A DNA stretch of 64,000 nucleotides from the NCBI GenBank assembly GCA_040752915.1, contig JBFMHB010000002.1, positions 13,967 through 77,966 of the forward strand. The letters run 5' to 3'. The DNA is from Acidobacteriota bacterium. GTDB lineage: Bacteria; Acidobacteriota; UBA4820; DSQY01. Of this stretch, positions 1 to 44,253 are shown piece by piece. Under the pieces are notes generated by a model, which was given only the letters and a program-made list of their open reading frames with translations, ran no database searches and was not told the origin of the DNA. The position numbers and the translations under genes were made by a program. Every line of letters begins with the position of its first letter. Position 1 is the first letter of the stretch.

Positions 1-758
1 TCACCGATCTCGCCCTGGCGGTGAATTCCATGCTCCGCGAGCTGGAAGCACAGCAAAACCAGATGGTTCAGGCCGCCAAGCTCACCACCGTGGGCACGCT
101 CACGTCGGGCATCGCCCACGAGCTCAACAACCCGCTCAACAACATCGCCATCACGACGGAAGCCCTCATGGAGGACTTCAAACGGCTTTCCGAAGGGGAG
201 AAATGGAAGCTCCTTCAGGACATTTACTTCGAGACCGAGAGGGCCGGCGAAATCGTCAAGAGCCTCCTCGACTTCACCCGGGAGGAGAGGCCGGAATCGG
301 TTCCCGTGTCCCTGGCGGAGGTCGTGGAATCCACCCGGCGGCTTCTTCACAACGAGATGGACCTGTCGGGGGTGAGGTTCGCGGCGGAGATTCCGGAGGA
401 CCTGCCCACCGTGCGCGCCGCCGTGAATCCCCTTCGGCAGGTCTTCTTGAACCTCTTCATCAACGCGGTCCACGCCATGCCGCGGGGCGGAACTCTTTCC
501 GTCCGGGCCATGAGAACCGACTCGGAGCGGGTCTGCGTCGACGTGACCGACACGGGCACGGGCATTCCGGCCGAAGTGCTTCCCCGAATCTTCGATCCCT
601 TCTTCACGACCAAGGAACCGGGCAAGGGAACCGGCCTGGGGTTGAGCGTATCCCTGGGCATCCTGCGAAAGTACGGCGGGGAAATGCGCGTCGTCAGCGA
701 AGTGGGCAAGGGAACTACGTTTCACGTGTGTTTGCCGGTGATGGAGACATCCGGTTGA
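1..758 (+). CDS. Sensor histidine kinase, C-terminal part (5' end lies outside the window). It has a HisKA-like H-box (SGIAHELNNPLN) and a HATPase_c region (DTGTGIP...GTGLGLSVS).
   Basis: The reading frame is open from base 3 with no upstream stop. H-box and N/G1/G2 ATP-binding motifs are readable in the translation. The stop is at 756-758. Confidence 0.85.
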   Translation, partial: TDLALAVNSMLRELEAQQNQMVQAAKLTTVGTLTSGIAHELNNPLNNIAITTEALMEDFKRLSEGEKWKLLQDIYFETERAGEIVKSLLDFTREERPESVPVSLAEVVESTRRLLHNEMDLSGVRFAAEIPEDLPTVRAAVNPLRQVFLNLFINAVHAMPRGGTLSVRAMRTDSERVCVDVTDTGTGIPAEVLPRIFDPFFTTKEPGKGTGLGLSVSLGILRKYGGEMRVVSEVGKGTTFHVCLPVMETSG

Positions 759-1150
759 TGCCGAACCCGGAGGTGGTCATGGCGGCCCAGAAGCGCGTGA
801 TGGTCCTGGACGACGAGCCCATCGTGGGCGAAAGATTGAAGCCGGCGCTGGAGAAGGAGGGCTTCGAGGTGGAGGTCTTCACCGACAGCGAAAGGGCCGT
901 CCAGCGTCTCGCAGAATCACCTTTCCATGTGCTCGTTACGGACCTGAAAATGCGCGGCCCTTCGGGAATGGACGTTCTCCGCTACGTCAAGGAGACCGCC
1001 CCCTCCACGGCGGTGATCGTCATCACCGGCTACGCCACCATCGAGACGCACCACGAGGCCGAGGCGTGGGGCGCCGCGAAGTTCGTCCCGAAGCCCTTCA
1101 AGATTCAAGAAATCGCCCGACTCGTTCGGGAGGCCGCCGGCCCGTCCTGA
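758..1150 (+). CDS. Single-domain response regulator (CheY-like receiver).
   Basis: The ATG overlaps the kinase stop (TGATG). Receiver motifs are present: VMVLDDEP, VLVTDLKMRGPSG and the conserved K in KPF. The protein is about 130 aa with no output domain. Confidence 0.85.
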   Translation: MPNPEVVMAAQKRVMVLDDEPIVGERLKPALEKEGFEVEVFTDSERAVQRLAESPFHVLVTDLKMRGPSGMDVLRYVKETAPSTAVIVITGYATIETHHEAEAWGAAKFVPKPFKIQEIARLVREAAGPS

Positions 1151-1221
1151 GCCTCCCGATCCAGACCCTCTATCCGATCCCGCCGCCAGGGAGCGCCTCT
1201 CCACGCCCGGTGAGGACCCGG

Positions 1222-2073
1222 TCAAGCCAGCCGGGACATCCTCAGCAACCTTCGTCCGACGGGCGCGACGGGCATGAGGACTCGGCCGATGGCCACGTCG
1301 GCTGGGTTTGCGGGATAGCTGTCCCGGAGGTAATCCCGCACCTTCCGAAGAACCGCGTCTCCGGTTCTCCCGAGCGTGACATGAATCCGTCCGCCCCGGG
1401 CGATCACTTCCACGGGGACGCGGAGGCCGCAGGGCTCTCCGGTGAGGTCGAGCAGTATCCGGGATTCCAATGCAAGATCCCGCATCCGGCTGCGGCTCTC
1501 CTCCGTGGGTTGGAATTCCGCTCCGACGGCGAGGGCGCCGAGAATGGGCAAGGCCGTCCGGAAGGAGAGCCTTCCCGTCCAGAGGACCAGGTCAAAGCCG
1601 TCGGCTTCCTGGACGGCGACGCCATGGACGTAACGGACCCACGATTCGATGTCCCGATCCACGGAGGTCAAGAACTCCTCGGCCTTGGCGCTCGGAAGCC
1701 TCAACCGCTCCTGCACACGCTCCACTCGGAGGCTTCTTGGGGAAAACACACCGACCCTGGACACATGCCGAACTCCCGGCAGAAGCCTGTGGCCCGCCCT
1801 ACCGTAGTAGACCAGGGGACCCCTGGACCACATTTCGCAAAGCAGGGCCGTCATTCCTGCCAGATAACGCCTCCGGAGGTAATCGAAGCGGGGCCCGGAA
1901 ATGCGGCCCCTGGAGGCCGCCACCTCCAGATCCCCCAGGTGCACGTCCTGTTCCGCCAGGCGCGAGATGGCCTCCTCCCGCGTAAGGAGATTCCACCCGA
2001 TTTCTCTGGCCAGGCCGGCGGCCAGGCGTTCTCCCCCCCCAAACGGGAGCCCCGCGATCATCAGTATGGTCAT
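1222..2073 (-). CDS. Cytidylate kinase-like family protein (Cytidylate_kin2-like, degenerate P-loop GLPFGGGERLA) with a BON-like C-terminal region.
   Basis: It is a paralogue of the 6655-7464 gene, with the same architecture and about 30% identity by eye. The start is taken at MTILMIAG. The longer ORF runs to 2115. Confidence 0.55.
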   Translation of the reverse strand: MTILMIAGLPFGGGERLAAGLAREIGWNLLTREEAISRLAEQDVHLGDLEVAASRGRISGPRFDYLRRRYLAGMTALLCEMWSRGPLVYYGRAGHRLLPGVRHVSRVGVFSPRSLRVERVQERLRLPSAKAEEFLTSVDRDIESWVRYVHGVAVQEADGFDLVLWTGRLSFRTALPILGALAVGAEFQPTEESRSRMRDLALESRILLDLTGEPCGLRVPVEVIARGGRIHVTLGRTGDAVLRKVRDYLRDSYPANPADVAIGRVLMPVAPVGRRLLRMSRLA

Positions 2074-2173
2074 GCACGCTCCCCATGAACCGTCCCCGAA
2101 GGGCGGCCCCATCATACATCGAGCGGAGTGGGACCTTCACACAACGGGGGCGGGACCGCCCGCGCCCGTGGAT

Positions 2174-4744
2174 CTACCGCCCGCTTTCCCGGGGGGGGCG
2201 ACAAGGCGACGCTTCCGGGTCGAATCGGTAATTCCCCGCCATGAACTGGGCCACATACCATTCCATCGCCTCGTGGCTCTCCATGTACATGTCCAACTGG
2301 CTGGAGCAAGCCATCAAGCGGCCCAGGATGTCCAGGGCCGCCGCGGTCTCCTCCGCGGTGCCCTTCCTGTGCCAGGCGTTCACGACGTCCCCTCTCCGGT
2401 CCGCCAGGAATCCCTGGCGAGAGAGCACCTTCTCGATGAAGACCGCCCGGAGGTTCCTGCGCCACCGGGTCGCGCCGCCGCCGGCGAAACGGAAGGAGAT
2501 GTAGTTGGCGTTGGCCTGATCCGAGAGGCACGCGTCCACGAGCGTGAAGTGGTAGGCCAGACGGCTGTTGAGGTTCATGTACTCGTCGGCCACCAGGAGG
2601 TAGCTCCGCTCTCCCAGGGCCCTCCGGGCGCTGGAGTGGGATGCGAAGGATCCCGCCACCACCGAGGCGAGGCCGTTCAGGCTGGCCGGCATCTGCCGGC
2701 TCCAGGACACGCCGGGATGGGTGACTCCGCACCAAAAGGCCGCGAAAGGCCGGGATGTGATTTGCTCGGGCAAGATCTCCCTCGTCTCCGGGTCCTCAAG
2801 CCGCACCCCCCCTCCCAGGTCCAGGACGAAGAGGCGGATGGGTGTCGCCGCGACGAGCCTCCTTGCGCTCAGGGGCGACCGATCCGCCGCCCTGTCGTTC
2901 ACTGAAAACATGGTTTCGATGGCCTTCTCGTGGGAAAACCGGAGGATATCGTGGGCGGACCGGCACCCCGAAGCCCGAAAATTGAAGGCCGACGGGTCCA
3001 CGAGGTTGAGCGTCAGCAGGCTGGAGTGGATCGGATCCTCCCTGAGCTCGGCGTACCTCTCCCCGAGGGGGACTTCGGCGGTGGGAGCGGCCCAGAGAAT
3101 CCCGCCGTAAAGGGCCGGACTGCCGGCGTCCAGGCTCACCTCCGAACCGTGGGACGTGCGCTCCATCGCGTGGGCCATCTGAAACGCGGACGGGATCTTG
3201 AACTCCCTGAGGAGCGCAGCGCCGTGGCCCGTGACGATCCCCCGTTCCGCAACGACTCCGGCGATTCGGTTCAGGACCTTGACGATGTCGGGCATGGGGC
3301 GCCGCACGAAAAGAATGGCTCCGGAGGGCACGTGGGCGAGGGATTCAACGTCCTCCACGTGAAACGCCGGTCCCGAGGCCCGGCCGCCGTAGATGGTCTT
3401 CCCACCCTTCAGGAGGGGCTCGGCCCTGGGGTTTCCCCTGGACTTCCCTCCGCCTGACTTGAATCCGAGGGCGAGGTCCCGAGTCTGGACGATCCACAGG
3501 GCGCCGTCTTCGTCGAGGACCCACTCCACGTCCTGCGGGGCCTTGAAGTGGGCCTCGAGCCGCACCCCCCAGTGCGCCAAAACCTGCAGATCTTCCGTTT
3601 CCATGGAGGATCCTCTGGACTCGTTCACGTCGAGGATTCTCCTCGCTATCCCCCCCCGTTCCCCGAGCACAACTTGGGATTCCTTTCGGGTGATATGCCG
3701 TTCAAGGACCGCGTGGCTCCGACCCCTCGCCAGTACGAACAGGTCGGCGGAGGCGCTCCCCCCGGCCAGGTCCACGCCCAGCCCTCGAGTGGCCGTGATG
3801 AGAAGGTTACCCGAGCTCGGCTGGTTCGGGTCCCTCGTGTACAGAATCCCCGCCGCCTTCGCTCGCAGGACGGGAATCACCAGGACCGCCATGGGGCTTT
3901 CCACCTCCCCGATGCCCCGCGAGCGGCGGTACGCGATGGCCCTCTCGGAGAAGCGGCTCGCGAGCACCTTCCGGTACGCGTCGAGGAGCTGGTTCTCCGG
4001 AACGTTGAGGAGGCTCAAGAACTGTCCGGCGAAGGTCTGCGGCCCACCTTCTCCCACTGCGCTGGAACGGACCGCGAAGCCCTGGCCGAGTGTGTCGAGG
4101 CGCTTGGCTCTCTCCATCAGAGCCACTTCCACGGCCCGGGGGATGGGCGCCTCGAGCACTTTGGCGACCAGACGCCGGGAGGCCTCCCGAATCCCCTCGA
4201 GATCGTCCGGATCCACCTCCCTCAGGGCATCCCGGATCTCCCGCCAGAGCGGGATGCCCACGGTCTGGCGATAGGCTTCCGTCGTCAGGACAAAGCCCTC
4301 TGGAACGGGCAGTCCGACGTGGTTCCGAACTTCTCCGAGGTAGGCCGTCTTTCCGCCCACTTCGTCCGAAGCACGAAGGTCTATCTCCGCCAGGGATGCG
4401 GCGAGCCGCGGAGTCTCCCTCTCCTGCCCCGCCGCGACGAAGGCCTCCACCTCATGGCGCTGTCTGGCCAGGAGCCTCACCAGCCGCGGGAACTTGTTCT
4501 CCGTGAGGGTCTCCAGTGCCTCGACGGTCCCGCGGGCCCGGTCGAAGACCTCGGCGATCCTCGGACCGATCACGTCCCGGAGAGGGGGGACGTACTGGAG
4601 ATCCTCCTGGAGGGACGCCATGCGTTCGAGGCACTCGTTGTTGTAGGCGAGGAGGTCGCGGAAGCACCGGTAGTGCTCCCGCATGCGGGCCTCCGCGGAA
4701 CGGACTTCCGCGTCGGTCCCCTTGCCTCTCCACGGAAGCCACAT
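2174..4744 (-). CDS. PEP-utilizing enzyme family protein (pyruvate, water dikinase-like). It has a PPDK_N ATP-grasp domain plus a phosphohistidine mobile domain, then a C-terminal ~330 aa region that is not the canonical PEP-binding TIM barrel.
   Basis: DEVGGKTAYLGEV at the start of the PEP/pyruvate-binding domain. GGRASGPAFHV...VTGHGAALLREFKIPSA is a mobile His domain. No SxNDL-type PEP-utilizers_C motifs are visible in the C-terminal third. Confidence 0.7.
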   Translation of the reverse strand: MWLPWRGKGTDAEVRSAEARMREHYRCFRDLLAYNNECLERMASLQEDLQYVPPLRDVIGPRIAEVFDRARGTVEALETLTENKFPRLVRLLARQRHEVEAFVAAGQERETPRLAASLAEIDLRASDEVGGKTAYLGEVRNHVGLPVPEGFVLTTEAYRQTVGIPLWREIRDALREVDPDDLEGIREASRRLVAKVLEAPIPRAVEVALMERAKRLDTLGQGFAVRSSAVGEGGPQTFAGQFLSLLNVPENQLLDAYRKVLASRFSERAIAYRRSRGIGEVESPMAVLVIPVLRAKAAGILYTRDPNQPSSGNLLITATRGLGVDLAGGSASADLFVLARGRSHAVLERHITRKESQVVLGERGGIARRILDVNESRGSSMETEDLQVLAHWGVRLEAHFKAPQDVEWVLDEDGALWIVQTRDLALGFKSGGGKSRGNPRAEPLLKGGKTIYGGRASGPAFHVEDVESLAHVPSGAILFVRRPMPDIVKVLNRIAGVVAERGIVTGHGAALLREFKIPSAFQMAHAMERTSHGSEVSLDAGSPALYGGILWAAPTAEVPLGERYAELREDPIHSSLLTLNLVDPSAFNFRASGCRSAHDILRFSHEKAIETMFSVNDRAADRSPLSARRLVAATPIRLFVLDLGGGVRLEDPETREILPEQITSRPFAAFWCGVTHPGVSWSRQMPASLNGLASVVAGSFASHSSARRALGERSYLLVADEYMNLNSRLAYHFTLVDACLSDQANANYISFRFAGGGATRWRRNLRAVFIEKVLSRQGFLADRRGDVVNAWHRKGTAEETAAALDILGRLMACSSQLDMYMESHEAMEWYVAQFMAGNYRFDPEASPCRPPRESGR

Positions 4745-4889
4745 GGGCAGGCCACCTCCGCGATCGGGTCCTCGGGCCAGGTGATCACCGCTGGAGTGGG
4801 GACCCTTAGCGGTCTATTCCTCCCCGTGAGCGATTTTGGCCGTACCCGCCGGAAATGCCCTCGGGCGCCTTTCCCTCCCGGCGTGTCTC

Positions 4890-5672
4890 TTAGTGGGCGG
4901 AGACCTTTCCGCCCAGCCTGGAGGCGATGAAATCGATGCCCAGGCCCGCCAGCGTGGCCACGAGAATGCACAGAATGCCGTACAGGACCGCCCGGTCCTT
5001 GGCCATTCCGGCCATCTTCTCGGGGAACCCCACCTTCAAGACCTTGAGGGGAAGTTCCGCTCGAGACAGGACCCTTCCGTCCCTGCAGGCGTACACTTCC
5101 AGCCGGTAGTCCGCCGGCGGGGCCACTTTGGGCCAGGCGAAGGAGACGGCGTAGCGGCTCGAGTTCTCCCCCGGCGTCACCGCAACGGTGCCCTCGTTCA
5201 CCTGGAGGATCCCCTGATCGGATTTGAGCTTCAGGTAGTTCTCCCTCACGAGCGGCTGGTCCATGACCGGCGGGTCCACCTTCATTTGGGCCTGGATCGA
5301 GGTCACGTCCAACTGGCCCGCCTCGAGGGCTTCCCGGGAGAGGAGGTCGGCCAGCGGGGCGCTCGAGAAGCCGATGAAGAGGGCGGGGACGCCGGCGATG
5401 CGGACCTTCCCCGCATTGGCCCAGATGGGCCCGAAGCGGCCCTTCTTGTTGAAGGACTCCTCGATCTGAGGTCCTTTCACGACGAGGTACACGCCGCTCC
5501 CGGCGGGCACTTCGCCCTCCACCCGGATCTGGGCCCCGCCGTAGAAGGCGTCCATCCGGATCACCTCCGGACTGATCCGGGCCGTCGGTGCGGCGGGTTC
5601 CTGAGAGAATCCGGAAAGCGCAAAGGAAAGAACGGCCAGGGCAACCAGCGATGCGGTTCGTGCGCGCTTCAT
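4890..5672 (-). CDS. Secreted or membrane hypothetical protein (TIGR02186-like putative transmembrane protein), with an N-terminal signal peptide and a C-terminal TM helix.
   Basis: Signal peptide MKRARTASLVALAVLSFALSGFSQE. C-terminal hydrophobic helix LYGILCILVATLAGLGIDFI. The gene ends 2 bp from the TauE gene, suggesting translational coupling. Confidence 0.5.
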   Translation of the reverse strand: MKRARTASLVALAVLSFALSGFSQEPAAPTARISPEVIRMDAFYGGAQIRVEGEVPAGSGVYLVVKGPQIEESFNKKGRFGPIWANAGKVRIAGVPALFIGFSSAPLADLLSREALEAGQLDVTSIQAQMKVDPPVMDQPLVRENYLKLKSDQGILQVNEGTVAVTPGENSSRYAVSFAWPKVAPPADYRLEVYACRDGRVLSRAELPLKVLKVGFPEKMAGMAKDRAVLYGILCILVATLAGLGIDFIASRLGGKVSAH

Positions 5673-5673
5673 G

Positions 5674-6594
5674 TCAGTGCCCTCCCCCCGTGGCGTACGA
5701 AAGAAGGCTCGCCGGCGTGACCACCAGGCTGAACGCCATCTTCACCATGACCAACAGGACGATGGAGGCGAGGAGAATCTTGAGCTGATCGCCCCTCAGC
5801 CGCTTGCCCACCCGGGCGCCGATCTGGGCCCCTATCGTGGATCCGATCATGAGGAGCAGGGCCAGGACCAGGTCCACCGTATGGTTCGTGGTGGCCTGCA
5901 TGAAGGTGACCCCGGCGCAGGTGAAGAAGATCTGGAAGAGGTCGGTTCCCACCGCCACGTGCATGGGCATCCGCAGGAGGTACACCATCATGGGGACCAT
6001 GATGAAGCCGCCCCCCACGCCCATGATGGCGGCGAGAATCCCGACGACCATGCACAGGAAGAAGGGAACGAACACCGAATGCTGGACCCCGGCGGTGGGG
6101 AAGTTCATCTGGAACGGGAGCCGGGAGAGTAGCCCGGGCTTCTTGACCGCCCCCGACTTCTTCGGGGCCATCCCGCCGCGCCGGAGGGCGTTGAGGCTTT
6201 CGAAGAACATGTACCCCCCGACGCTTCCCAGGACCACCACGTAGGTCACCGTGATGAGGAAGTCGGCGTTGCCCATGGCCCGCAGGACCTTGATGATCCG
6301 CACGCCGATGGCCCCGCCCACGAGTCCCCCGATGAGGAGAATGGACCCCAACTTCACGTCCACGTTTTTCAGGCGGAAGTGGGCGGCCGCCCCGGACGCC
6401 GAGGCCGCCACGATCTGGCAGGAGTCCGAGGCGGCCGCGACGGTGGGCGGGATGCCCATCATGATCAGGATGGGCGTGAGCAGAAACCCGCCTCCCACCC
6501 CGAACATCCCGGACATGAAGCCGACGATGGCTCCGGCCCCCATGACCAGGAACAGGTTGATGCTGATTCCGGCGACAGGTAAGAAGATCGACAT
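5674..6594 (-). CDS. TauE/SafE (DUF81) family sulfite/anion exporter.
   Basis: Duplicated 4-TM halves with GxGGG motifs (GMFGVGGGFLLTPIL and IMGVGGGFIMVPMMV), typical of TauE/SafE. Confidence 0.85.
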   Translation of the reverse strand: MSIFLPVAGISINLFLVMGAGAIVGFMSGMFGVGGGFLLTPILIMMGIPPTVAAASDSCQIVAASASGAAAHFRLKNVDVKLGSILLIGGLVGGAIGVRIIKVLRAMGNADFLITVTYVVVLGSVGGYMFFESLNALRRGGMAPKKSGAVKKPGLLSRLPFQMNFPTAGVQHSVFVPFFLCMVVGILAAIMGVGGGFIMVPMMVYLLRMPMHVAVGTDLFQIFFTCAGVTFMQATTNHTVDLVLALLLMIGSTIGAQIGARVGKRLRGDQLKILLASIVLLVMVKMAFSLVVTPASLLSYATGGGH

Positions 6595-6654
6595 GTCCCC
6601 CCCTGCTCGGCCACGCCCCCCATGATTTCCGCGGGTGCCGGGCCCTCTCCCGGG

Positions 6655-7464
6655 CTACGCGCTGGGCGGCTGGACCAGTCCCTCCAAACTCACGCTCGTG
6701 ACCCCCTGAATCTTCCAGACCACCTCCTGGACCTCCTTCACTTGTTCGCGGTTGGCCAGTTTCCCCCGAATGGTCACCGCCCCCCCATGAGCCTCCACGT
6801 CCACTTCCAGCGTGCCCGTGGCCGGATGGGTGACGAGGCTGGCTCGGATCCGGCTGGCGAGGGCCAGGTCCTCCATGGCCGCCATCGAATCCTCCGTTTC
6901 CTCGAACACCCGCTGCCTCGCGACGGAGGCGATGATGTCGCACGCCTCCTTGATGTCCATGTACTCGAGGTTCAGCACGATATCGTAGAGGGAGGGTTCG
7001 CCCCAGTCCACGCCGTAGAGATAGTGGGTCCACTTCTTGCGGTCCTGGTCCATCTTCTGGATGTAGGCGACGGATTCCTCGCGGGTCATCTTGAGCCGGT
7101 CCTGGACCATGGCCACCCGGTGTTCGAAGGGCGCGATGATGCGGGTCCTCAGGACGTGGCTCACTCCCCGAAGCAGAAGGTGGCCCGCGTTGCCGTGGTA
7201 GATGGCTTTCCCCCCCCGGACCTCCTCCGTCAGCGCGGCCTGGATCAGGGTGAGGTAGACGTACTTCTTGTGGTTGAACCGGTCCCAGAACCCCGGGGGG
7301 TTCATGAGGGCGCTCCGGAGTTCTTCCTGGGTAACGCCGTACGCGGCGGCCCGCTCCACGATCACGTCGCGGTCCACGCACCGGTAGCTCAGGTTGTCGG
7401 CCAGGCACTCGGCCAGGATCTTGCCGCCGCTGAAAGACCCGCGGGAAATGGTGATGACCGCCAT
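6655..7464 (-). CDS. Cytidylate kinase-like family protein with a C-terminal BON domain.
   Basis: MAVITISRGSFSGGKILAE is a Cytidylate_kin2-type N-terminus. The C-terminus GTLEVDVEAHGGAVTIRGKLANREQVKEVQEVVWKIQGVTSVSL has a BON-like pattern. It is a paralogue of 1222-2073. Confidence 0.6.
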   Translation of the reverse strand: MAVITISRGSFSGGKILAECLADNLSYRCVDRDVIVERAAAYGVTQEELRSALMNPPGFWDRFNHKKYVYLTLIQAALTEEVRGGKAIYHGNAGHLLLRGVSHVLRTRIIAPFEHRVAMVQDRLKMTREESVAYIQKMDQDRKKWTHYLYGVDWGEPSLYDIVLNLEYMDIKEACDIIASVARQRVFEETEDSMAAMEDLALASRIRASLVTHPATGTLEVDVEAHGGAVTIRGKLANREQVKEVQEVVWKIQGVTSVSLEGLVQPPSA

Positions 7465-7707
7465 GGCCGACCCCCTCCGTATAATTTGGACACGCCCCGC
7501 ATCGGCGTCAACAGGATGCACCCGGGCGAGGCCTCAAAGCAAGGGGTTTCGAATCCTTTTTCCGCGCCTTTTCATAACATTTTGTTACAATCCCCCACCT
7601 CGGACCGCGGGCCCGTCCTTCCATTGACCCCTGCCGGCCCCCATGCTACACAGGCCGCTCGGTGATCCCCATCCCCCGAAGGGAAGGACCCCGAAGAGGG
7701 ACATCGC

Positions 7708-9414
7708 ATGAGACCCGGCAAGGTGTACATCGTGGGCGCGGGCCCGGGCCACCCCGAACTCCTCACTCTCAAGGCCGCGGCCCTCCTGCGCCAGGGCGAC
7801 GTGATCGTGTACGACCGCCTGATCCAGGAGGAGGTCCTCGCCCTCGCCAAGCCCTCCGCCGAACGCCTCTACATGGGGAAGCCCGTAGGCAAGCACGACT
7901 CGCGCCAGGACGAAATCCACGAGGTGCTCGTCCGGAAGGCCCGAGAGGGGAAGGTCGTCGTGCGGCTCAAGGGCGGAGATCCCTTCGTCTTCGGACGGGG
8001 GGGCGAGGAGGCCGAGTACCTGGCCGCCCACGGCGTGGCCTTCGAGGTCATCCCCGGCGTCTCCTCCGCCCTGGCGGCGCCTCTCTCGGCGGGCATCGCC
8101 GTCACCCACCGGGAGAACGCCTCCTGCGTGGCCATCGTCACGGGCCACGAGGCCAAGGACGAGGAGACCCGCATCGACTGGGAGGCCCTGGCCCGCCTCG
8201 ACACCCTGGTCTTCCTCATGGGCGTGAAAAACGCGGGGCGGATCGCCTCCCGCCTCATCCGCCATGGGCGGAGCCCCAAGACCCCGTGCGCGTTCATCCA
8301 GATGGCCTTCTGGCACGACGAGGCCGTCCTCGTCAGCACGCTGGGGCGCGTGGAGGAGGACCTCGCCCGGGCGGGGATCCGGCCGCCCGCCACTTTCGTC
8401 GTGGGGGAGGTGGTGCGCCTGAGGGAGAAGATCAGCCATGCCGAGCGGGACCTCGCACGGCGCGCCGACGGCTCCGCCCGCTTCGACCCGTCCCCCGTAC
8501 CCGATCAGCTTCTCCGCCTGGCCTCGGCGGGCCTCGGCTCACAGGCTTTGGGTCTCGCCCTCGAGGTCTCCCTCTTCGACCGCACCGAGACGCCGGAACC
8601 GCCCGAGTCCCTGGCCGCCGCGCTGGGCTGGGACGCGTCCGCCGCCGTGGAGATCCTGGACGCCCTCGTGGCCTTGGGACTGCTCGAAAAGCGGGAGGAC
8701 GGCTACGGCAACCTGGAACTCTCCTCCCGGTACCTGCGGGACGGTTCGCCCCATTCGCTCCGGCCCACGCTCCTCCACCAGGCGTCCCTCTCCGTTTCCT
8801 GGGACCGCCTGAAGGCGTACGTCCAGGAGGGGTGCCGCGACTTCGTGGCCCCCGATCCGAACCCTGCGGGGGCCGCCGCCTGCGAGGCCCTCGCCCGATT
8901 CGCCGCTCCCGCCGTCGTGGAGAAACTCGATTCACGGCCTCCGGGCCCCGTTCTCCTGATTGGCTGGGGAGGGGAAGCCTATGCCGAGGCCCTCCGCACC
9001 CGATGGCCGGACCTGGCCTTTTCCCACCGGAACCCCTTGGAAGGCCCGGACCGCGGGCTTCGCATGCTGGCCCCGATCCCAAGGGAGGGCGCCCCCTTCG
9101 GTACGATCTTCCTCTCGGGTCTCCTGGCCTCCTCCAGCCGCGGCGACGTGCAGAAGATCCTGGAATGCGCCGTTGAAGCCCTCGATTCCGGCGGCCGGGT
9201 CTTCCTTCACGACGCCTTCCTGCCCTCCAGCGTCCTGCCTCCCCCCGAGGTGGTCCTCGGCGCCCTCGGGCGGCGGGTGGCCCAGGGAGGATGCCGCACC
9301 TGGAGCGTCAACCGGCTCGTCCAGACCCTGGACGCCCTCGGCCTCTGCGGGGTGAAGGTCCACTCCCTTCCCGCGGGCACCCTTCTGGTGGAAGCCGGAA
9401 AGGCGTCGGCGTGA
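7708..9414 (+). CDS. cobA: Uroporphyrinogen-III C-methyltransferase (SUMT/CobA, residues ~1-250) fused to a C-terminal ~300 aa region resembling a winged-helix dimerisation domain plus a class-I methyltransferase-like domain.
   Basis: VYIVGAGPGHPELLTLKA, GDPFVFGRGGEE and VIPGVSSALAAP are canonical SUMT motifs. The C-terminal half has an OMT-dimerisation-like winged-helix segment (ILDALVALGLLEKREDGYGNLEL) and a degenerate nucleotide-binding loop (LLIGWGGEA). Confidence 0.75.
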   Translation: MRPGKVYIVGAGPGHPELLTLKAAALLRQGDVIVYDRLIQEEVLALAKPSAERLYMGKPVGKHDSRQDEIHEVLVRKAREGKVVVRLKGGDPFVFGRGGEEAEYLAAHGVAFEVIPGVSSALAAPLSAGIAVTHRENASCVAIVTGHEAKDEETRIDWEALARLDTLVFLMGVKNAGRIASRLIRHGRSPKTPCAFIQMAFWHDEAVLVSTLGRVEEDLARAGIRPPATFVVGEVVRLREKISHAERDLARRADGSARFDPSPVPDQLLRLASAGLGSQALGLALEVSLFDRTETPEPPESLAAALGWDASAAVEILDALVALGLLEKREDGYGNLELSSRYLRDGSPHSLRPTLLHQASLSVSWDRLKAYVQEGCRDFVAPDPNPAGAAACEALARFAAPAVVEKLDSRPPGPVLLIGWGGEAYAEALRTRWPDLAFSHRNPLEGPDRGLRMLAPIPREGAPFGTIFLSGLLASSSRGDVQKILECAVEALDSGGRVFLHDAFLPSSVLPPPEVVLGALGRRVAQGGCRTWSVNRLVQTLDALGLCGVKVHSLPAGTLLVEAGKASA

Positions 9415-9448: not shown

Positions 9449-10084
9449 GTGAGCTACTTCGTCAACCTCAACGTCAAGGGCCGCAAGGCCGTGGTCGTGG
9501 GCGGAGGGAACGTGGCCCTCCGGAAGGTCGGCGGCCTCCTCGCCGCCGGAGCCCGCGTCTCGGTGGTGGCCGAATCTCCCCACCCCGAGATTCGCCTCCT
9601 GGCCGCGGCGGGGCGCCTTCGCCTGGAAGCCCGCCCTTACGCCGATGGAGATCTGGAAGGCGCCTTCCTGGCCGTGGCCGCCACCGACGACGAGGAGGTG
9701 AACGCCCGCGTCTCCGCCGAGGCGGTGCGGCGCGGGATCCTCGTCAACGTGGCCGACCGACCGGCCCTCTGCACCTTCACCCTGCCCGCCGTGGTGCGGC
9801 GGGGGGACCTCACCCTCGCGGTGGCCACCGACGGCCGTTGCCCGGCCCTTTCCCGTGCCCTCCGGGAGGAACTGGAGAACACCTACGGGGAGGAGTACGC
9901 CGGGCTGACGGACCTGATGGGGAGCCTTCGAGGGCGGCTCATGGCCGAGGGACGCCCCTATGGCGAAATCCAGAAGGCCCTGGAGGCCCTCTACCGCGGA
10001 GGGGCCCTCCGCCTCCTGGCGGAAGGCGACCTCGAAGGGCTCCGCGACCTCATCCGGCGAACCTGCTCCCTCGAAGAAGATTAG
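9449..10084 (+). CDS. sirC: Precorrin-2 dehydrogenase / sirohydrochlorin ferrochelatase (siroheme synthase N-terminal domain; SirC/Met8-like).
   Basis: GTG start preceded by GGGAGGAG. Rossmann NAD motif VVVGGGNVALRKV. Length and domain order match the CysG N-terminal domain. It lies immediately downstream of cobA. Confidence 0.75.
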   Translation: MSYFVNLNVKGRKAVVVGGGNVALRKVGGLLAAGARVSVVAESPHPEIRLLAAAGRLRLEARPYADGDLEGAFLAVAATDDEEVNARVSAEAVRRGILVNVADRPALCTFTLPAVVRRGDLTLAVATDGRCPALSRALREELENTYGEEYAGLTDLMGSLRGRLMAEGRPYGEIQKALEALYRGGALRLLAEGDLEGLRDLIRRTCSLEED

Positions 10085-39731: not shown

Positions 39732-41195
39732 TCAGCCCTCCTTGGGCCGGTAGGTCAGCACGGGGTTCCGGGCCGCCGACACTTCGTCGAGGCGCTTCCG
39801 GAAGGCCTCGTGGGGGGCCTTCTTGACGAACTCCGGGTCTTTTCTCGCCTCGTCCAGGATCGCCTTCACGGCCTCCACGAAGCGGTCCATCTCCTCCACC
39901 GGCTCGGTCTCCGTGGGCTCCACCATGAGGGCCCCGTGGACGATGAGGGGAAAGTACACGGTGGGCGGGTGGAAGCCGTAGTCGATGAGGCGCTTGGCCA
40001 GATCCATGGTGGTGATGCCCCCGGGAAGGCCCTTGTCGCAGAAGACCACCTCGTGGAGCGTGGGACCGTCGAAGCCCAGGGGGAGGTGCTCCCCGAGCCT
40101 CGCCCGCAGGTAGTTGGCGTTGAGAACGGCCATCTGGGAGGCCCGCTTCAGGCCCTCCCCACCCATGGTTTCGATGTAGCAAAGCGCCCGGACGAGGATC
40201 AGGAAGTTGCCGAAGAAGGCGTGGACCTTGCCGATGCTCTTGGGACGGTCCCAATCCCAGCGAAAGCCGTCCTTCCCCCGGACCAGCACCGGTTTGGGCA
40301 GGAAGGGCTCCAGGTGGGCCTTGCAGACCACGGGGCCCGCGCCCGGACCCCCGCCTCCGTGGGGGGTGGAAAAGGTCTTGTGGAGGTTGATGTGCATGAC
40401 GTCGGCGCCCCAGTCGCCTGGGCGGGTAATCCCCATGAGCGCGTTGAGGTTGGCGCCGTCCACGTAGACCTGGCCGCCCTGGGCGTGAAGGATCGAGCAG
40501 ATATCCGCGATGTTTTTCTCGAAGATGCCCAGGGTGTTGGGCACGGTGAGCATGATGGCCGCCACGTCCGGCGCCATGCGGGCCTTGAGGGAGGCGAGGT
40601 CCACGCAGCCGTCGGGCCCGCTCCGGATCTCCTCCACGCGGTAGCCCGCCATGTGGGACGTGGCGGGGTTCGTGCCGTGGGCCGAATCGGGGATCAGAAC
40701 CACTTCCCGGGCGTCCCCGCGGTCCTCGTGATAGGCCCGGATGACCTGCATCCCCGTGAATTCGCCCTGGGCCCCGGCCGAGGGCTGGAGGGTGCAGGCG
40801 TCCATCCCCGCCACGGCGCACAGGGCCCGCTCGAGGGTGTGGAGGATTTCCAGCGCCCCCTGGACCGAAGCGTCGTCCTGCATGGGGTGGAGGCCCGTCA
40901 GGCCCTCGAACCGGGAGACGTCCTCGTTGAGCTTCGGGTTGTACTTCATGGTGCAGGAGCCCAGCGGGTACAGGCCGTAGTCCACCGCGTAGTTCATCAG
41001 GGACAGCCGGGTGAAGTGCCGGACCACGTCCACTTCGCTCAGTTCGGGAAGGCGGGCCGGGGGATCGGGGCGCAAGAGATCCCCGAAGAGAGCCTCGGCG
41101 TCAGCCGTGGGGACTTCCTTGGTGCACAGGCAGACTCCCAGGCGGCCGGGCTTGTCCTTTTCGAAGAGGAGCGGTTCCTCGATGAAGCGGCTCAT
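39732..41195 (-). CDS. gcvPB: Glycine dehydrogenase (decarboxylating) subunit 2 (P-protein C-terminal half).
   Basis: MSRFIEEPLLFEK start. PLP-dependent motifs (NLHKTFSTPHGGGGPG). The longer track ORF upstream of this Met is an open GC-rich frame overlapping gcvPA. Confidence 0.9.
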   Translation of the reverse strand: MSRFIEEPLLFEKDKPGRLGVCLCTKEVPTADAEALFGDLLRPDPPARLPELSEVDVVRHFTRLSLMNYAVDYGLYPLGSCTMKYNPKLNEDVSRFEGLTGLHPMQDDASVQGALEILHTLERALCAVAGMDACTLQPSAGAQGEFTGMQVIRAYHEDRGDAREVVLIPDSAHGTNPATSHMAGYRVEEIRSGPDGCVDLASLKARMAPDVAAIMLTVPNTLGIFEKNIADICSILHAQGGQVYVDGANLNALMGITRPGDWGADVMHINLHKTFSTPHGGGGPGAGPVVCKAHLEPFLPKPVLVRGKDGFRWDWDRPKSIGKVHAFFGNFLILVRALCYIETMGGEGLKRASQMAVLNANYLRARLGEHLPLGFDGPTLHEVVFCDKGLPGGITTMDLAKRLIDYGFHPPTVYFPLIVHGALMVEPTETEPVEEMDRFVEAVKAILDEARKDPEFVKKAPHEAFRKRLDEVSAARNPVLTYRPKEG

Positions 41196-42541
41196 GAAAG
41201 ACCTCCCAGGATCTCGGCGAGCTTCTCGGAGGCCTCTTTCGGCGTCTGCTCGGTGGCGCAGAGGAGGTACCCGTTGGACAGCTCCGGATAGTGGGCCGTC
41301 AGGTCGAGGCCGCCCACGATGTGGGCCTTGAGGGCCTCGGCGTTGGCCCGGGAGGGGGGGATCTTCAAGCCCACCGCGAACTCGTTGAAGGTGGGGCCCG
41401 AGAAAAGGGGCCGGATGCCCCGCTCCGCGAGTAGGGACTTGAGGTGCTCGGCCTTGCTCAGGTTCCTCAGGGCGAGTTCGCGGAGGTTCCGCCGGCCCAT
41501 GAGGGCGAGGTAGATGACCGCGGCGAGCATGCAGAGTCCCTGGTTCGTGCAAATGTTGGAGGTGGCCTTCTCGCGGCGGATGTGCTGTTCCCGCGTCGTC
41601 AGGGTGAGGACGAAGCCCCGCCGTCCCTCGGCGTCCCGGGTCTCTCCCACCAGGCGCCCGGGCATCTGCCGCACATGGGCCTTTCGGGCGGCGAGGAAGC
41701 CGAGGTTCGGGCCTCCGTATCCCAGCGGGAGCCCGAAGGAGCGGGCCTCGCCGCACACCACGTCGGCCCCCGCGTCGCCGGGAGGCCGGATCAGGGCGAG
41801 GGCCAGGGCCTCGCAGACCACCCCCACGAGGAGGGGGCGGTTGGGACCCGCCGGAAGGGCCGCGGCGACGGCCCCGAAGTCCTCCACGACGCCGAAGAAG
41901 TTGGGCTGGCCCACGAGGAGGCAGCACGCCCCCTCCAACCCCGCCCCGGCGAGGGACGGGAGGTCGATCCGGCCGTCGGGCCCGTAGGGCACCTCGGCCA
42001 CGTCGAGGTCCAGGTGTTTGAGGTAGGTGCGGATCACCTCTCGGTAAGCGGGGTGGAGGGACTTCGCCACGAGCACCTTCCGCCCCTTGTGGACCCTCGC
42101 GGCCAGGAGGGCCGCCTCGGCCGCGGCGGAGGCCCCGTCGTACAAGGACGCGTTGCAGACGTCGGTCCCGCACAGATCGGCCATCATGGTCTGGAATTCG
42201 AAGATGGCCTGGAGAGTGCCCTGCGCCAGTTCGGGCTGGTAGGGCGTGTAGGCCGTGTAGAATTCGCTCCTCGAAAGGAGGTGGCCCACCGGGGCGGGGA
42301 CGAAGTGATTGTAGGCGCCCGCGCCCAGGAAGCCCGGACGGCACGTGAGGGAGTGGTTCCGGGACGAGCGGGTGACGAAGCGCTCCCTCAGGTCGCATTC
42401 GGGCAGGGCCGTGGGCATGTCCAGAGGCGCCTTGAGCCTCAGAGGCTCCGGGATGGAGGCGAAGAGGTCCTCCACCTGGGACACGCCGGCGGCGGTGAGC
42501 ATGACCCGGAGGTCCTCCGGACTCTGCGGAAGGTAACGCAT
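41192..42541 (-). CDS. gcvPA: Glycine dehydrogenase (decarboxylating) subunit 1 (P-protein N-terminal half).
   Basis: MRYLPQSPEDLRVML and YTPYQPELAQGTLQAIFEFQTM are typical GcvPA motifs. ATGA overlap with gcvPB. Confidence 0.9.
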   Translation of the reverse strand: MRYLPQSPEDLRVMLTAAGVSQVEDLFASIPEPLRLKAPLDMPTALPECDLRERFVTRSSRNHSLTCRPGFLGAGAYNHFVPAPVGHLLSRSEFYTAYTPYQPELAQGTLQAIFEFQTMMADLCGTDVCNASLYDGASAAAEAALLAARVHKGRKVLVAKSLHPAYREVIRTYLKHLDLDVAEVPYGPDGRIDLPSLAGAGLEGACCLLVGQPNFFGVVEDFGAVAAALPAGPNRPLLVGVVCEALALALIRPPGDAGADVVCGEARSFGLPLGYGGPNLGFLAARKAHVRQMPGRLVGETRDAEGRRGFVLTLTTREQHIRREKATSNICTNQGLCMLAAVIYLALMGRRNLRELALRNLSKAEHLKSLLAERGIRPLFSGPTFNEFAVGLKIPPSRANAEALKAHIVGGLDLTAHYPELSNGYLLCATEQTPKEASEKLAEILGGLS

Positions 42542-42550
42542 GGGAACTCC

Positions 42551-42940
42551 TCAGTGGGAGGCTTCGGCGACGTACTTCCCGTAGGCCTCGGCGTCCATCA
42601 GCCCGCCGATTTCGGCGGCGTCGGAGAGGGCGATCTTGACGATCCACCCCTCTCCGTAGGGATCCTGATTCAGGAGTTCGGGGTGGTCCTTCAGCGCCTC
42701 GTTGGCGGCGGAAACCGTTCCGGATACCGGGGCGTTGAGTTCCGAAACGGCTTTCACGCTCTCCACGCTGCCCATGGGGTTCCCCGCCGTGACGGCGGCT
42801 CCCACCTCGGGCGCCTCCACGAAGACGATGTCGCCGAGTTCGTGCTGAGCGAAGTCCGTCACGCCCACCACGGCCTCCCCACCGCTCGCGCGAACCCACT
42901 CGTGGGTCTTGGTGTACCTCAGGTCTCCGGGCACGTTCAT
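42551..42940 (-). CDS. gcvH: Glycine cleavage system H protein (lipoyl carrier).
   Basis: MNVPGDLRYTKTHEW and the lipoyl-lysine region SVESVKAVSELNAPVSG. The start is chosen by alignment to the canonical GcvH N-terminus. The ORF extends to 42946. Confidence 0.88.
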   Translation of the reverse strand: MNVPGDLRYTKTHEWVRASGGEAVVGVTDFAQHELGDIVFVEAPEVGAAVTAGNPMGSVESVKAVSELNAPVSGTVSAANEALKDHPELLNQDPYGEGWIVKIALSDAAEIGGLMDAEAYGKYVAEASH

Positions 42941-43029
42941 CTGCACCTCCGGAGCCCGGGCGCCTTTCTCCGAAAGTCCCCGGGCCTCACCTCGCCGTCA
43001 CTCCGCTCTTACGTCCTCGCCAGCCCGAG

Positions 43030-44130
43030 CTAGCGGCTTCTCTTGTAAAAAGGCTTGGGGACGACCCGCGCGGCCAGGCGCCTGCCCCGCACGTCCACCT
43101 CGAAGGCCGAACCCGGGGCGGAGATCTCCACGGGCAGGTACGCCATGCCGATGGACTTCTTCAGGAAGGGCGCCTGGGTCCCGCTCGTCACATGGCCCAC
43201 CTTTTCCCCGCCTTGGTAGCAGTCGTACCCGTGGCGGGGGATTCCCCGGTCCACCAGTTCGAAGCCCACGAGCTTTCTCCGGACCCCTTCGGCTTTCTGC
43301 CGCTCGAGGACCTCCCGGCCGTTGAAGGAGGGCTTGCTCAGTTTCAGGATCCAGCCCAAATCCGCCTCGAGGACCGTCGTCGTGGCGTCGATGTCGTTGC
43401 CGTACAAGGCCATGGCGGCCTCGAGGCGCAGGGTGTCCCTCGCACCAAGGCCCGCCGGCTGGAGTCCCTCCTCCCGGCCCTCCTTCAGGAGGGCCCGCCA
43501 GAGTTCCGGGGCCTTGGAGGGGGAAAGGTAGACCTCGAAACCGTCCTCCCCGGTATAGCCGGTGCGCGCCAGGAGGCAGCGCTCGCCGAGCACCGTCCCG
43601 TAGGTGAACCAGTAATACTTCACGGCGGAAAGGTCGGAGTCGGGAACGAGCCTCTGAAGGATGGCTACGGCCAGAGGACCCTGGATGGCGATCTGGGCCG
43701 TCTGCGGGCTCCGGTTGGTGACCGTGGCGTCGAAACCCGAGGCTTCTTTCAGAATCCAGGCGTGGTCCTTGGGCTCGTTGGCCGCGTTGACCACCAGCAA
43801 GTAGCGGTCCTGTGCGACCTTGTGGACCAGCAGGTCGTCCACGAAGGTGCCCTCCTTCGTCAGGAGACCGCTGTACTGGATCTGGTTCACCGCCAGCTTG
43901 GAGGCGTCGTTGCTGCACAAGTGCTGGACGAGGTCGAGGGCCTGGGGCCCCTCGATCCAGATCTCGCCCATGTGGCTCACGTCGAAGAGGCCCGCCCGGG
44001 TCCGGACGGCCTCGTGCTCCTCGAGGATCGACGTGTACTGAACGGGCATGTCCCAGCCCCCGAAATCCACCATTCGGGCGCCCAGGGCTCGGTGCTCCTC
44101 GTTCAGGGGGGTGCGCTTCACGCTGTCCAT
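43030..44130 (-). CDS. gcvT: Aminomethyltransferase (glycine cleavage system T protein).
   Basis: RTPLNEEHRALGARMVDFGGWDMPVQY and ARTGYTGEDGFE are canonical GcvT motifs. The start is at MDSVKR. Confidence 0.9.
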   Translation of the reverse strand: MDSVKRTPLNEEHRALGARMVDFGGWDMPVQYTSILEEHEAVRTRAGLFDVSHMGEIWIEGPQALDLVQHLCSNDASKLAVNQIQYSGLLTKEGTFVDDLLVHKVAQDRYLLVVNAANEPKDHAWILKEASGFDATVTNRSPQTAQIAIQGPLAVAILQRLVPDSDLSAVKYYWFTYGTVLGERCLLARTGYTGEDGFEVYLSPSKAPELWRALLKEGREEGLQPAGLGARDTLRLEAAMALYGNDIDATTTVLEADLGWILKLSKPSFNGREVLERQKAEGVRRKLVGFELVDRGIPRHGYDCYQGGEKVGHVTSGTQAPFLKKSIGMAYLPVEISAPGSAFEVDVRGRRLAARVVPKPFYKRSR

Positions 44131-44253
44131 GATTCCCCTCCGTAAGCCGCCTATTCTAGGCCCCGTTCGGCACAGCGTCAAACGAATTCCCGCCGTGTCC
44201 CACACCCCTGGGTGAGGCGCCGTGGCGGCTGGAATCTCGCGGAGGCGGAGGCC

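Follow-up and report, generated by a model that had tools for sequence, protein, structure and literature searches.

A PEP-synthase-like enzyme with a novel C-terminal domain, its conserved gene partners across phyla, and a possible role in the regulation of sulfur-oxyanion uptake

What might an enzyme with the catalytic core of phosphoenolpyruvate (PEP) synthase be doing in the company of a TauE-type membrane transporter and two relatives of cytidylate kinase? The question is raised by five co-directional minus-strand genes at 1222-7464 of a 64,000-nucleotide stretch of DNA, which we call the window, from contig JBFMHB010000002.1 of an Acidobacteriota bacterium (assembly GCA_040752915.1, positions 13,967 to 77,966 of the forward strand). 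They encode an 856-aa PEP-synthase-like enzyme, a TauE/SafE transporter, an Alph_Pro_TM protein and, at the two ends, the cytidylate-kinase-like (cmk-like) proteins cmkA and cmkB (Table 1). All five had been pointed out in a reading made from the DNA letters alone (the sequence-only reading) and all five are in the window's list of open reading frames (ORFs); we take them as genuine genes because their third-position GC is 0.77-0.92, window GC being 65-70%. We find that the enzyme, cmk-like/BON proteins and an oxyanion-type transporter form a combination that is constant across phyla. As for what the combination does, we favour, tentatively and with a confidence that falls a little short of even, the reading that the module is a cytoplasmic His-phosphotransfer regulatory unit controlling sulfur-oxyanion uptake in dissimilatory sulfur metabolism; by sulfur oxyanion we mean, with the same reserve, one of the sulfate, sulfite or thiosulfate type.

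The catalytic core of the enzyme is readily recognised. As the sequence-only reading had proposed, the protein carries the ATP-grasp domain and the mobile phospho-His domain of PEP synthase, and these stand in the PEP synthase order: ATP-grasp, His domain and then an unknown domain. Over residues 120-550 the enzyme is 29% identical to E. coli PpsA, with His507 aligned to the catalytic His421, and because His507, in the motif GN[IV][TA]GHxAxLLRE, and the ATP-grasp signature blocks are invariant in 125 members (~33-100% identical in the C-terminal domain, or C-domain), a working His-phosphotransfer core is expected. The likeness to PpsA and pyruvate phosphate dikinase (PPDK) goes no further, for the enzyme has an unrelated domain of ~310 aa in place of their TIM barrel and an extra N-terminal region of ~115 aa. 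Neither residues 1-115 nor residues 545-856 have a Pfam match, the N-terminal ~115 residues are without an NCBIfam match as well, and no hydrophobic segments are predicted in the enzyme, cmkA or cmkB. With an ATP-grasp domain, a swivelling His domain and a separate acceptor domain of what would be a new type, the protein belongs to the dikinase superfamily in its broad sense. Regulation of the PSRP/PDRP type by the cmk-like proteins was considered as a conserved feature and rejected, for two places ahead of the catalytic His the enzyme family has either T or A; no ppsR-like (DUF299) gene lies adjacent to the enzyme.

It is the C-domain that sets this enzyme apart. That the C-terminal third is not the PEP-utilizers TIM barrel had been suspected from the sequence, and rightly so: no Pfam or NCBIfam model, PEP-utilizers_C included, matches residues 545-856, hhalign gives a probability of 0.06% against the PpsA barrel, and the C-terminal 338 aa find only a chance Fab match (E=0.88) when compared with PDB sequences. 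Conservation profiles rank the C-domain (~310 residues) among the best-conserved parts of the enzyme, with C594, H598, D599, H605, N724, H732, N747, F753, G755, G808, D818 and others invariant across distant members; judged from these profiles, the domain is under strong selection. A HMMER scan of 1.84 billion representatives returned 1,110 C-domain homologues (50%-identity clusters), 522 of them at E<=1e-30. Nearly all are proteins of 820-880 aa with the domain in the corresponding place, the exceptions among long family members being lectin/ConA-like C-terminal extensions and one N-terminal LMWPc (low-molecular-weight phosphatase) domain. The AlphaFold model from a diverse alignment (pLDDT 80.7, pTM 0.71) predicts an antiparallel beta-sheet accompanied by long helices and no (beta-alpha)8 barrel, and Foldseek comparison of this model with 350,542 PDB chains gave at best E=0.04 and TM 0.24, with no PEP synthase (PEPS) or PPDK barrel and no rifampin phosphotransferase (RPH) chain among the matches. 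An arginine-kinase/McsB-like fold, which Foldseek had proposed with a probability of ~0.8 over ~80 residues of a shallow-alignment model (pLDDT 65.8), was set aside when it weakened with the better model. The C-domain defines a large uncharacterised family with an acceptor domain that is, on the modelled fold, structurally novel.

The proteins at the two ends of the module are paralogues, as had been supposed (32% identity, E=1e-35). For cmkA the ORF reaches 2115, and gene calls in homologous loci and on the parent contig place the start at 2073, which gives 283 aa. The sequence-only reading had described both P-loops as degenerate. This holds for cmkA, which has lost the lysine of its Walker-A region (MIAGLPFGGGERLA) and is therefore likely non-catalytic, but not for cmkB, which keeps a G-x-x-x-x-G-K loop, ITISRGSFSGGK, invariant in 120 close cmkB homologues (62-96% identical) among which cmkB is more conserved than the enzyme. 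The cmkB loop (GSFSGGKI) is without the Walker A Ser/Thr, and PDB entry 3hdt, a 'putative kinase' of the same Pfam family (PF13189) that matches at 1e-6, has a GSGG variant of the loop; the non-canonical loop is on this account a trait of the family and, alone, no proof that ligand binding has been lost. Both C-termini had also been called BON-like. For cmkB this is a Pfam match (PF04972, 33.4 bits vs a cutoff of 27), accompanied by an OsmY match in the PDB, whereas the C-terminal region of cmkA, which has no Pfam BON match, can be aligned to BON in cmkB and in the paralogues of the Desulfobacterales locus described below and is BON-like by homology only. Five compared cmk-like proteins align end to end, the BON-like region included; G-x-x-x-x-G-K is kept in cmkB and its Desulfobacterales counterpart, and the lysine is lost in cmkA, in the second Desulfobacterales paralogue (cmk2) and in a fusion of a cmk-like domain with a receiver domain (cmk::REC). 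At 32.7 bits vs a cutoff of 102 for TIGR02173, the model of true Cmk, there is no equivalog-level match to (d)CMP kinase. The proteins share the nucleoside-monophosphate-kinase-like fold family of Cmk and of the PF13189 structures 3HDT and 3FDI; they differ from Cmk in a Walker A that is without Ser/Thr or wholly lost and in the added C-terminal BON domain.

Is the company that these genes keep more than a local accident? We probed one genome per species with the C-domain alignment and found relatives in 229 stretches, of which the best 80, retained here, all come from metagenome-assembled genomes (MAGs) of Acidobacteriota or Binatia, the peat MAGs SbA1 and SbA3 included. Genes within 10 kb were counted by tblastn, using the window proteins and the annotated neighbours of loci L001, L003 and L005, in the 55 loci that span 18 kb or more; at the coverage required (40-50%), some small divergent proteins may have gone uncounted. 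A TSUP transporter lies within this distance in 52/55 loci, a periplasmic accessory gene (Alph_Pro_TM, DVU0150 or DUF4881) in 53/55 and a cmk-like gene in 40/55, so that each of these kinds of partner accompanies the enzyme in 40-53 of 55 independent species-level genomes, and the conservation of neighbourhood for which the sequence-only reading had looked is real. Sat is present in 36/55, often immediately adjacent, and at least one sat/apr/dsr marker in 40/55; Alph_Pro_TM itself co-occurs with the enzyme in 39 loci. Genes for response regulators (RR) or histidine kinases (HK) are found in 17 of the 55 (HK in 12). Clustering of this kind is far beyond chance.

The gene order is stereotyped. 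Sat or a divergent TP_methylase fusion is followed by cmk, then by TauE and Alph_Pro_TM and/or DVU0150, TauE and DUF4881, and then by the enzyme; this last triad stands upstream of the enzyme in 24-25 of the 55 loci. On the 3' side comes either a second cmk gene, as in the window and in L008-L014, or a small protein, DsrN, Sat and DsrM2K2, and L001 has AprBA, Sat and DsrN. One locus, L068, is contig 61 of SbA3 and reads enzyme-dsrD-dsrN-sat-dsrM2K2. Because the table published for SbA3 by Hausmann et al. sets dsrD, dsrN, sat, dsrM2 and dsrK2 at genes 610002-610009, the enzyme is the unnamed gene just upstream. The module genes have probably already been drawn, unnamed, in a published figure. 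In the place where those authors annotate dsrD in SbA3 we find a conserved protein of 84 aa ('s84'; L001 11049-11303), directly downstream of the enzyme in 14/55 loci; it has no Pfam DsrD match at E<=0.01, and its identity as DsrD is by position only.

In the window the divergent neighbours of the module are a TP_methylase fusion and a precorrin-2-dehydrogenase homologue, of families that Hausmann et al. (PMC6018796) named DsrWa and DsrV. The fusion recurs in 22/55 loci and also in L005 and in a 'Deltaproteobacteria' MAG (L173), and the DsrV-like gene recurs in the closest loci L008, L010, L011 and L014. There is no sat, apr or dsrAB gene in the window, where only the DsrWa/DsrV-like genes adjoin the module, and for this organism the link to sulfur therefore rests on these neighbours and on its closest relatives. 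Biosynthesis of the sirohaem cofactor, considered as the core function in view of the DsrN, DsrWa and DsrV neighbours, was rejected, since the Desulfobacterota-type loci have none of these genes. As an observation apart, the 568-aa product of 7708-9414 joins a uroporphyrin-III-methyltransferase-type TP_methylase and an O-methyltransferase 'Dimerisation' winged helix to a region of ~220 aa, has weak HTH_IclR/MarR_2 matches at residues 292-331, and recurs by the module in many loci and in the Deltaproteobacteria MAG; it may act in regulation as well as being a sirohaem enzyme. The DsrV-like gene starts 34 nt downstream of it.

Distant family members with 33-40% C-domain identity come from Desulfobacterales, other 'Deltaproteobacteria' and Nitrospiraceae. 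A metagenome scan led by the sequence of one Desulfobacterales locus (L088) met with its operon repeatedly, and genes were counted in the 34 loci of at least 10 kb. A transporter is present in 29/34 (22 TSUP, 7 DASS), a cmk-like gene in 22/34, and RR or HK genes in 26/34 (HK in 25/34); Sat was found in 0/34 Desulfobacterota-type loci. L088 itself encodes an NtrC-type regulator, a Usp-like protein, a DASS carrier (Na_sulph_symp + TrkA_C), two cmk-like proteins, an RR, a 331-aa protein, a second RR, the enzyme and an HK; on its opposite strand are Usp, RR, a HisKA-like protein, RR, a dCache HK, a Cytidylate_kin2::receiver fusion, SulP-STAS and TetR, the SulP-STAS gene lying beside the cmk::REC fusion. 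What is kept and what is exchanged can be seen in the parallel between 'DASS> cmk> cmk> RR> u331> RR> enzyme> HK>' and 'cmk> TauE> u331> RR> enzyme> HK>': the same transporter slot is filled by DASS or by TauE in otherwise homologous operons, and 'RR> enzyme> HK>' is nearly constant. In the window too, HK and receiver genes are physically linked to the module, converging on it (Table 1). The window HK gene starts before the window, and on the parent contig its product has 385 aa with HAMP, HisKA and HATPase_c domains. The window RR shares 46.6% identity (E=2e-38) with the RR encoded just before the enzyme in L088 and, by this comparison, is probably the same component as the Desulfobacterota RR in that position. 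Across phyla the transporter family varies (TSUP with periplasmic accessories, DASS or SulP), and RR/HK genes and sat/dsr genes may be present or absent.

Several other arrangements were seen in these loci. The conserved 'u331' protein (L088 8537-9532), whose gene is framed by the two RR genes that precede the enzyme, has no Pfam match, and upstream of the transporter is a likewise conserved, weakly Usp-like protein of 148 aa ('u148'; L088 3904-4350). Tandem or multiple enzyme copies, up to four, occur in L018, L019, L023, L087, L121, L130 and L173, often alternating with RR and HK genes, which suggests paralogous modules working in parallel. In L173 the order enzyme, dCache-HK, RR, enzyme stands beside a DVU0150-TauE pair, a DsrMKJOP-type operon and the fusion of TP_methylase with Dimerisation. 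The enzyme variant fused to the low-molecular-weight phosphatase domain adjoins MFS and chromate-transporter-family genes, one divergent member is near a Na/Pi cotransporter with PhoU, and the Nitrospiraceae variant has GDT1/TerC/LysE/MFS and ChrB neighbours and no cmk-like gene.

What, then, is transported, and in which direction? The TauE protein has about 8 predicted hydrophobic segments. Its partner, the Alph_Pro_TM protein, is predicted to have a signal-like N-terminus, an extracytoplasmic domain of ~190 aa and one C-terminal transmembrane anchor. The sequence-only reading had called this partner a TIGR02186-family protein and had put the two genes 2 bp apart. The Pfam Alph_Pro_TM match agrees with the label, but the NCBIfam TIGR02186 score is 72.3 bits vs a cutoff of 255, so by these scores the protein is a relative of TIGR02186 and not an equivalog; the gap is 1 nt (TGA-c-ATG). 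The accessory proteins paired with TauE are Alph_Pro_TM, DVU0150 and DUF4881. A comparative study lists SulP, DASS, CysP and TSUP as candidate sulfate carriers, with TSUP functions unassigned (PMC5840216), and sulfate reducers take up sulfate by carriers of the DASS and SulP families (PMC5840216, PMC11887813). The context of TauE thus suggests uptake, with a sulfur oxyanion as the putative substrate. We further observed that Alph_Pro_TM/TIGR02186, although named alphaproteobacterial, is a standard TauE partner in Acidobacteriota, Binatia and some Desulfobacterota-type loci, and that DVU0150 with DUF4881 is an alternative accessory pair around a second type of TauE. On the parent contig beyond window position 1 (L006, 11960-20936) is a second pair of TauE and Alph_Pro_TM genes, flanked by two pairs of HK and single-domain RR genes, with the hydrogenase maturation genes hypF, hypC and hypD coming next.

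How might such a set of proteins work together? In the mechanism that we propose, whose biochemical steps, acceptor and transported substrate are inferred from sequence, predicted structure and synteny, the enzyme would bind ATP in its ATP-grasp domain and autophosphorylate His507 with release of AMP (and Pi), as the conserved motifs shared with PEP synthase suggest. The phospho-His domain would then swing to the C-domain, which stands in the place of the pyruvate barrel, and the phosphoryl group would go to an acceptor other than pyruvate, most likely a partner protein, either the Cytidylate_kin2/BON proteins or the CheY-like response regulator. Because the phosphorylation state of the enzyme would depend on ATP, AMP and Pi, the unit would report energy charge. 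cmkB, with its P-loop kept, would bind a nucleotide or an anion, and the P-loop-less cmkA would be a pseudo-kinase adaptor, their BON domains placing both at the membrane beside the TauE and Alph_Pro_TM carrier; an external signal would come in through the HK and response regulator pair. In this way the uptake and activation of the oxyanion, which are costly at 2 ATP equivalents per sulfate, would be matched to supply and energy status. A more specific version of this, in which a 'dikinase-driven phosphorelay', headed by an ATP-grasp/phospho-His enzyme in place of a classical histidine kinase or enzyme I of the phosphotransferase system, passes energy charge (ATP vs AMP/Pi) to phosphorylated CheY-like receivers and/or pseudo-NMP-kinase/BON adaptors via the novel acceptor domain and so gates sulfur-oxyanion uptake in sulfate- or sulfite-respiring bacteria of several phyla, is in our judgement doubtful.

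We prefer regulatory phosphotransfer to biosynthesis or export because unrelated carriers share one slot beside the enzyme and cmk genes, because P-loop-less paralogues and a cmk::receiver fusion exist, and because the enzyme is sandwiched between RR and HK. Such a role would also fit what has been postulated for Desulfobacteraceae, in which DASS/SulP clusters contain many two-component systems and a second level of uptake control, responsive to energy status, has been proposed (PMC11887813). Several points weigh against this preference. The invariant Cys, His, Asp, His, Asn, His, Asn and Asp of the C-domain would suit a site for a small molecule or metal no less than protein docking, none of the long family members has the enzyme fused to a cmk-like or receiver domain, and two-component input is not universal since RR/HK genes are found in only 17 of the 55 acidobacterial loci. 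The locus sets themselves are the top-scoring 80 per scan and are not phylogenetically balanced. Finally, SbA1 (L028), which is reported to lack sat/apr (PMC6018796), still carries the module, so that sulfate itself may not be the common substrate; it is for this reason that we write of a sulfur oxyanion and not of sulfate.

Could the enzyme instead be metabolic? It might phosphorylate or, in the reverse direction, dephosphorylate a small molecule with a part in sulfate activation, such as an oxyanion (sulfate or sulfite), APS or AMP, or recycle the AMP and PPi of Sat/APS reductase as PPDK can, with the cmk-like proteins as nucleotide-handling partners. The nearness of Sat in acidobacterial loci speaks for this, as do the wealth of invariant catalytic-type residues in the C-domain and the invariant GxxxxGK loop of cmkB; the characterised relatives PEPS, PPDK, RPH and PigC/RedH all act on small molecules or glucans, and divergent members adjoin chromate- or phosphate-type transporters, suggesting an oxyanion theme. 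Nevertheless, although we count it as a serious rival, we think such a role unlikely: Sat is missing from every one of the Desulfobacterota-type loci counted, a position between RR and HK is unusual for core metabolism, the cmk::receiver fusion and the P-loop-less paralogues point to signalling, and no known metabolite fits. At the other extreme, the enzyme could be an ordinary PEP synthase (pyruvate,water dikinase) with a diverged C-terminus and chance neighbours; PEP synthase models are indeed its best NCBIfam matches, and JGI names homologues 'pyruvate,water dikinase'. But the scores are 238 bits vs a cutoff of 598 (TIGR01418) and 230 vs 740 (NF005057) and the matches cover model positions 5-465 only, which, with a C-terminal third that neither the profile searches nor AlphaFold liken to the barrel and with synteny that is highly non-random, makes this idea hardly conceivable.

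The sequence-only reading had itself proposed the phosphorylation and export of a small molecule, by which an RPH-like enzyme would phosphorylate a small organic molecule and TauE with the TIGR02186-like protein would export the product. A dikinase core with a non-pyruvate acceptor domain is what this proposal would lead one to expect, the conserved neighbourhood is real, and TauE family members have been described as sulfite/organosulfonate exporters (PMC5840216; also the Pfam name). The analogy with RPH did not hold up, however: RPH models match the ATP-grasp domain only (NF041857 at positions 5-311 with 207 bits vs 999; NF000283 with 144 vs 1700), and the modelled C-domain has no structural similarity to RPH. 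The acceptor-binding domain of RPH (structures 5HV1/5FBS) lies between the ATP-grasp and a C-terminal His domain, whereas our enzyme has its His domain in the centre and the unknown domain at the C-terminus. RPH and PigC/RedH belong to the same superfamily and use the ATP-grasp/His machinery on non-pyruvate acceptors, and their NCBIfam models match at 1e-40 to 1e-61, but over only ~300 residues of the enzyme. The extracytoplasmic accessories, the uptake family DASS in the TauE slot of parallel operons and SulP beside one, the sat/dsr/apr clusters, the interleaved RR/HK genes and the cmk::receiver fusion together indicate uptake and regulation and not metabolite export, and no conserved biosynthetic or catabolic genes for an organic substrate lie nearby in the Acidobacteriota/Binatia loci; we regard export as improbable. 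Equally improbable, in our estimate, is a direct role in energising transport, in which the dikinase and cmk-like proteins would couple ATP hydrolysis to the carrier (ArsA/ArsB-like) or modify the oxyanion at entry, in the manner of the phosphotransferase system (PTS), for high-affinity accumulation at micromolar sulfate. EI of the PTS is a member of the dikinase enzyme superfamily, and transporter, accessories and enzyme are in tight co-directional linkage. The habitats, low-sulfate peat and soil (PMC6018796), would suit such a role as well. No membrane-docking domain is fused to the enzyme, however, TSUP, DASS and SulP are structurally unrelated and hard to square with a specific mechanical coupling, and embedding among RR/HK genes favours regulation.

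For the regulatory role that we favour, the nearest functional analogy would be the nitrogen PTS (EI-Ntr/NPr/EIIA-Ntr). There a His-phosphotransfer enzyme of the PEP-utilizer family heads a purely regulatory relay; the phosphorylation state of this enzyme mirrors metabolic status and governs ion transporters (Trk, Kdp) as well as the sensor kinases KdpD and PhoR. The donor in the nitrogen PTS is PEP, via a TIM barrel, whereas in our enzyme it would be ATP, via ATP-grasp, and no HPr- or EIIA-like genes are found in the module loci, where the partners would be Cytidylate_kin2/BON proteins and CheY-like receivers. With the Desulfobacteraceae DASS/SulP clusters (PMC11887813), L088 and its kin share DASS or SulP-STAS, two-component systems, Usp and TetR, but the window version uses TauE and Alph_Pro_TM instead of DASS/SulP. 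A dikinase-like enzyme is mentioned neither in that paper nor in its supplement, and the term 'cytidylate kinase-like' is confined there to lists of proteome proteins, unconnected with the clusters. A further parallel is the DVU0150-DVU0146 operon of Desulfovibrio vulgaris, a member of the sigma54/DVU0151 regulon annotated with 'transmembrane transport' (PMC4641369); the triad of DVU0150, TauE and DUF4881 in acidobacterial loci carries the family name of the first gene of that operon, whereas the window has an accessory of the Alph_Pro_TM type. The module genes are unmentioned in the D. vulgaris fitness paper and in the paper on a sulfate-reducing acidobacterium, and in literature on TauE/cytidylate kinase/dsrAB, on TIGR02186/Alph_Pro_TM/DUF4881 and on cytidylate kinase-like proteins in sulfate reducers we found no description of the module. 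Public databases give names that are generic or wrong ('PEP/pyruvate-binding domain-containing protein', 'pyruvate,water dikinase', 'cytidylate kinase'). New here, within the dikinase superfamily, are the acceptor domain and the genomic partnership; we found no paper describing the module, the C-domain or their association.

Table 1. Features of the module and of the genes that adjoin it, with positions in the window
Feature	Position	Strand	Evidence
Sensor histidine kinase, C-terminal part (HisKA + HATPase_c), converges on module	21..758	+	Pfam
Single-domain CheY-like response regulator, 123 aa	779..1150	+	Pfam Response_reg 6e-24
cmkA, Cytidylate_kin2 paralogue, 283 aa, BON-like C-terminus	1222..2073	-	Pfam Cytidylate_kin2 8e-15, 55.8 bits vs cutoff 28
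PEP-synthase-like His-phosphotransfer enzyme, 856 aa, predicted cytoplasmic	2174..4744	-	Pfam/NCBIfam, no transmembrane segment, PpsA alignment
Enzyme, novel C-terminal domain, residues 545-856, in acceptor-domain position	2177..3112	-	no family match, AlphaFold, Foldseek, hhalign
Enzyme, mobile phospho-histidine domain, residues 473-540; His507 codon 3224-3226	3125..3328	-	Pfam PF00391 1e-10
Enzyme, ATP-grasp (PPDK_N) nucleotide-binding domain, residues 127-423	3476..4366	-	Pfam PF01326 6e-66
Enzyme, N-terminal region, ~115 residues, helical, weakly conserved	4400..4744	-	conservation profile; no family match
Alph_Pro_TM (TIGR02186-like) protein, 260 aa, putative TauE accessory subunit	4890..5672	-	Pfam PF09608 2e-42, 146 bits vs cutoff 24.5
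TauE/SafE (TSUP family) membrane transporter, 306 aa, putative sulfur-oxyanion carrier	5674..6594	-	Pfam PF01925 4e-50, 171 bits vs cutoff 32.6
cmkB, Cytidylate_kin2 + BON protein, 269 aa, invariant ITISRGSFSGGK loop	6655..7464	-	Pfam 7e-36 (124.6 bits vs cutoff 28) + BON 6e-8
DsrWa-like TP_methylase + winged-helix 'Dimerisation' + C-terminal region, divergent from module	7708..9414	+	Pfam
DsrV-like precorrin-2 dehydrogenase homologue (NAD_binding_7 + Sirohm_synth_M)	9449..10084	+	Pfam

Scans for sigma-70 promoters and for terminators over 1-7800 gave results at chance level, and the intergenic regions of the module have no sigma-54 consensus, the window-wide count of which is likewise at chance level. 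The sole zero-mismatch site of the window, a perfect -24/-12 sigma-54 consensus (TGGCACGGTCATTGCA), is at 58177-58192 on the minus strand, ~130 nt upstream of a 759-aa ORF (55769-58048, minus strand). Elsewhere on the minus strand of the window are eight very large ORFs of 753 to 2,188 aa (10245-39676), several with signal-peptide-like N-termini and all unrelated to the module, and four consecutive ORFs (41192-45327) whose N-termini by eye resemble the P, H and T subunits of the glycine cleavage system.

Dissimilatory sulfate reduction governs how carbon is mineralised in marine sediments and how much methane wetlands emit; among its steps the uptake of sulfate comes first, influences the rate and is the least understood. 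To the study of uptake our analysis offers as candidates an unannotated enzyme family of about 1,100 clusters, a conserved P-loop/BON partner and TSUP carriers with periplasmic accessories, all of them physically linked, in Acidobacteriota, with sat/dsr and, in Desulfobacterota, with DASS/SulP and two-component genes, and it provides a functional context for three orphan families, Alph_Pro_TM, DVU0150 and DUF4881. The annotation 'pyruvate,water dikinase' is corrected, which would otherwise lead to wrong calls of gluconeogenesis in metabolic reconstructions of these MAGs, and the C-domain would be a fourth type of acceptor domain in the dikinase superfamily. If the relay model is true, the module would represent a new type of signalling system and would fill the place of the missing 'second control level' in sulfate uptake.

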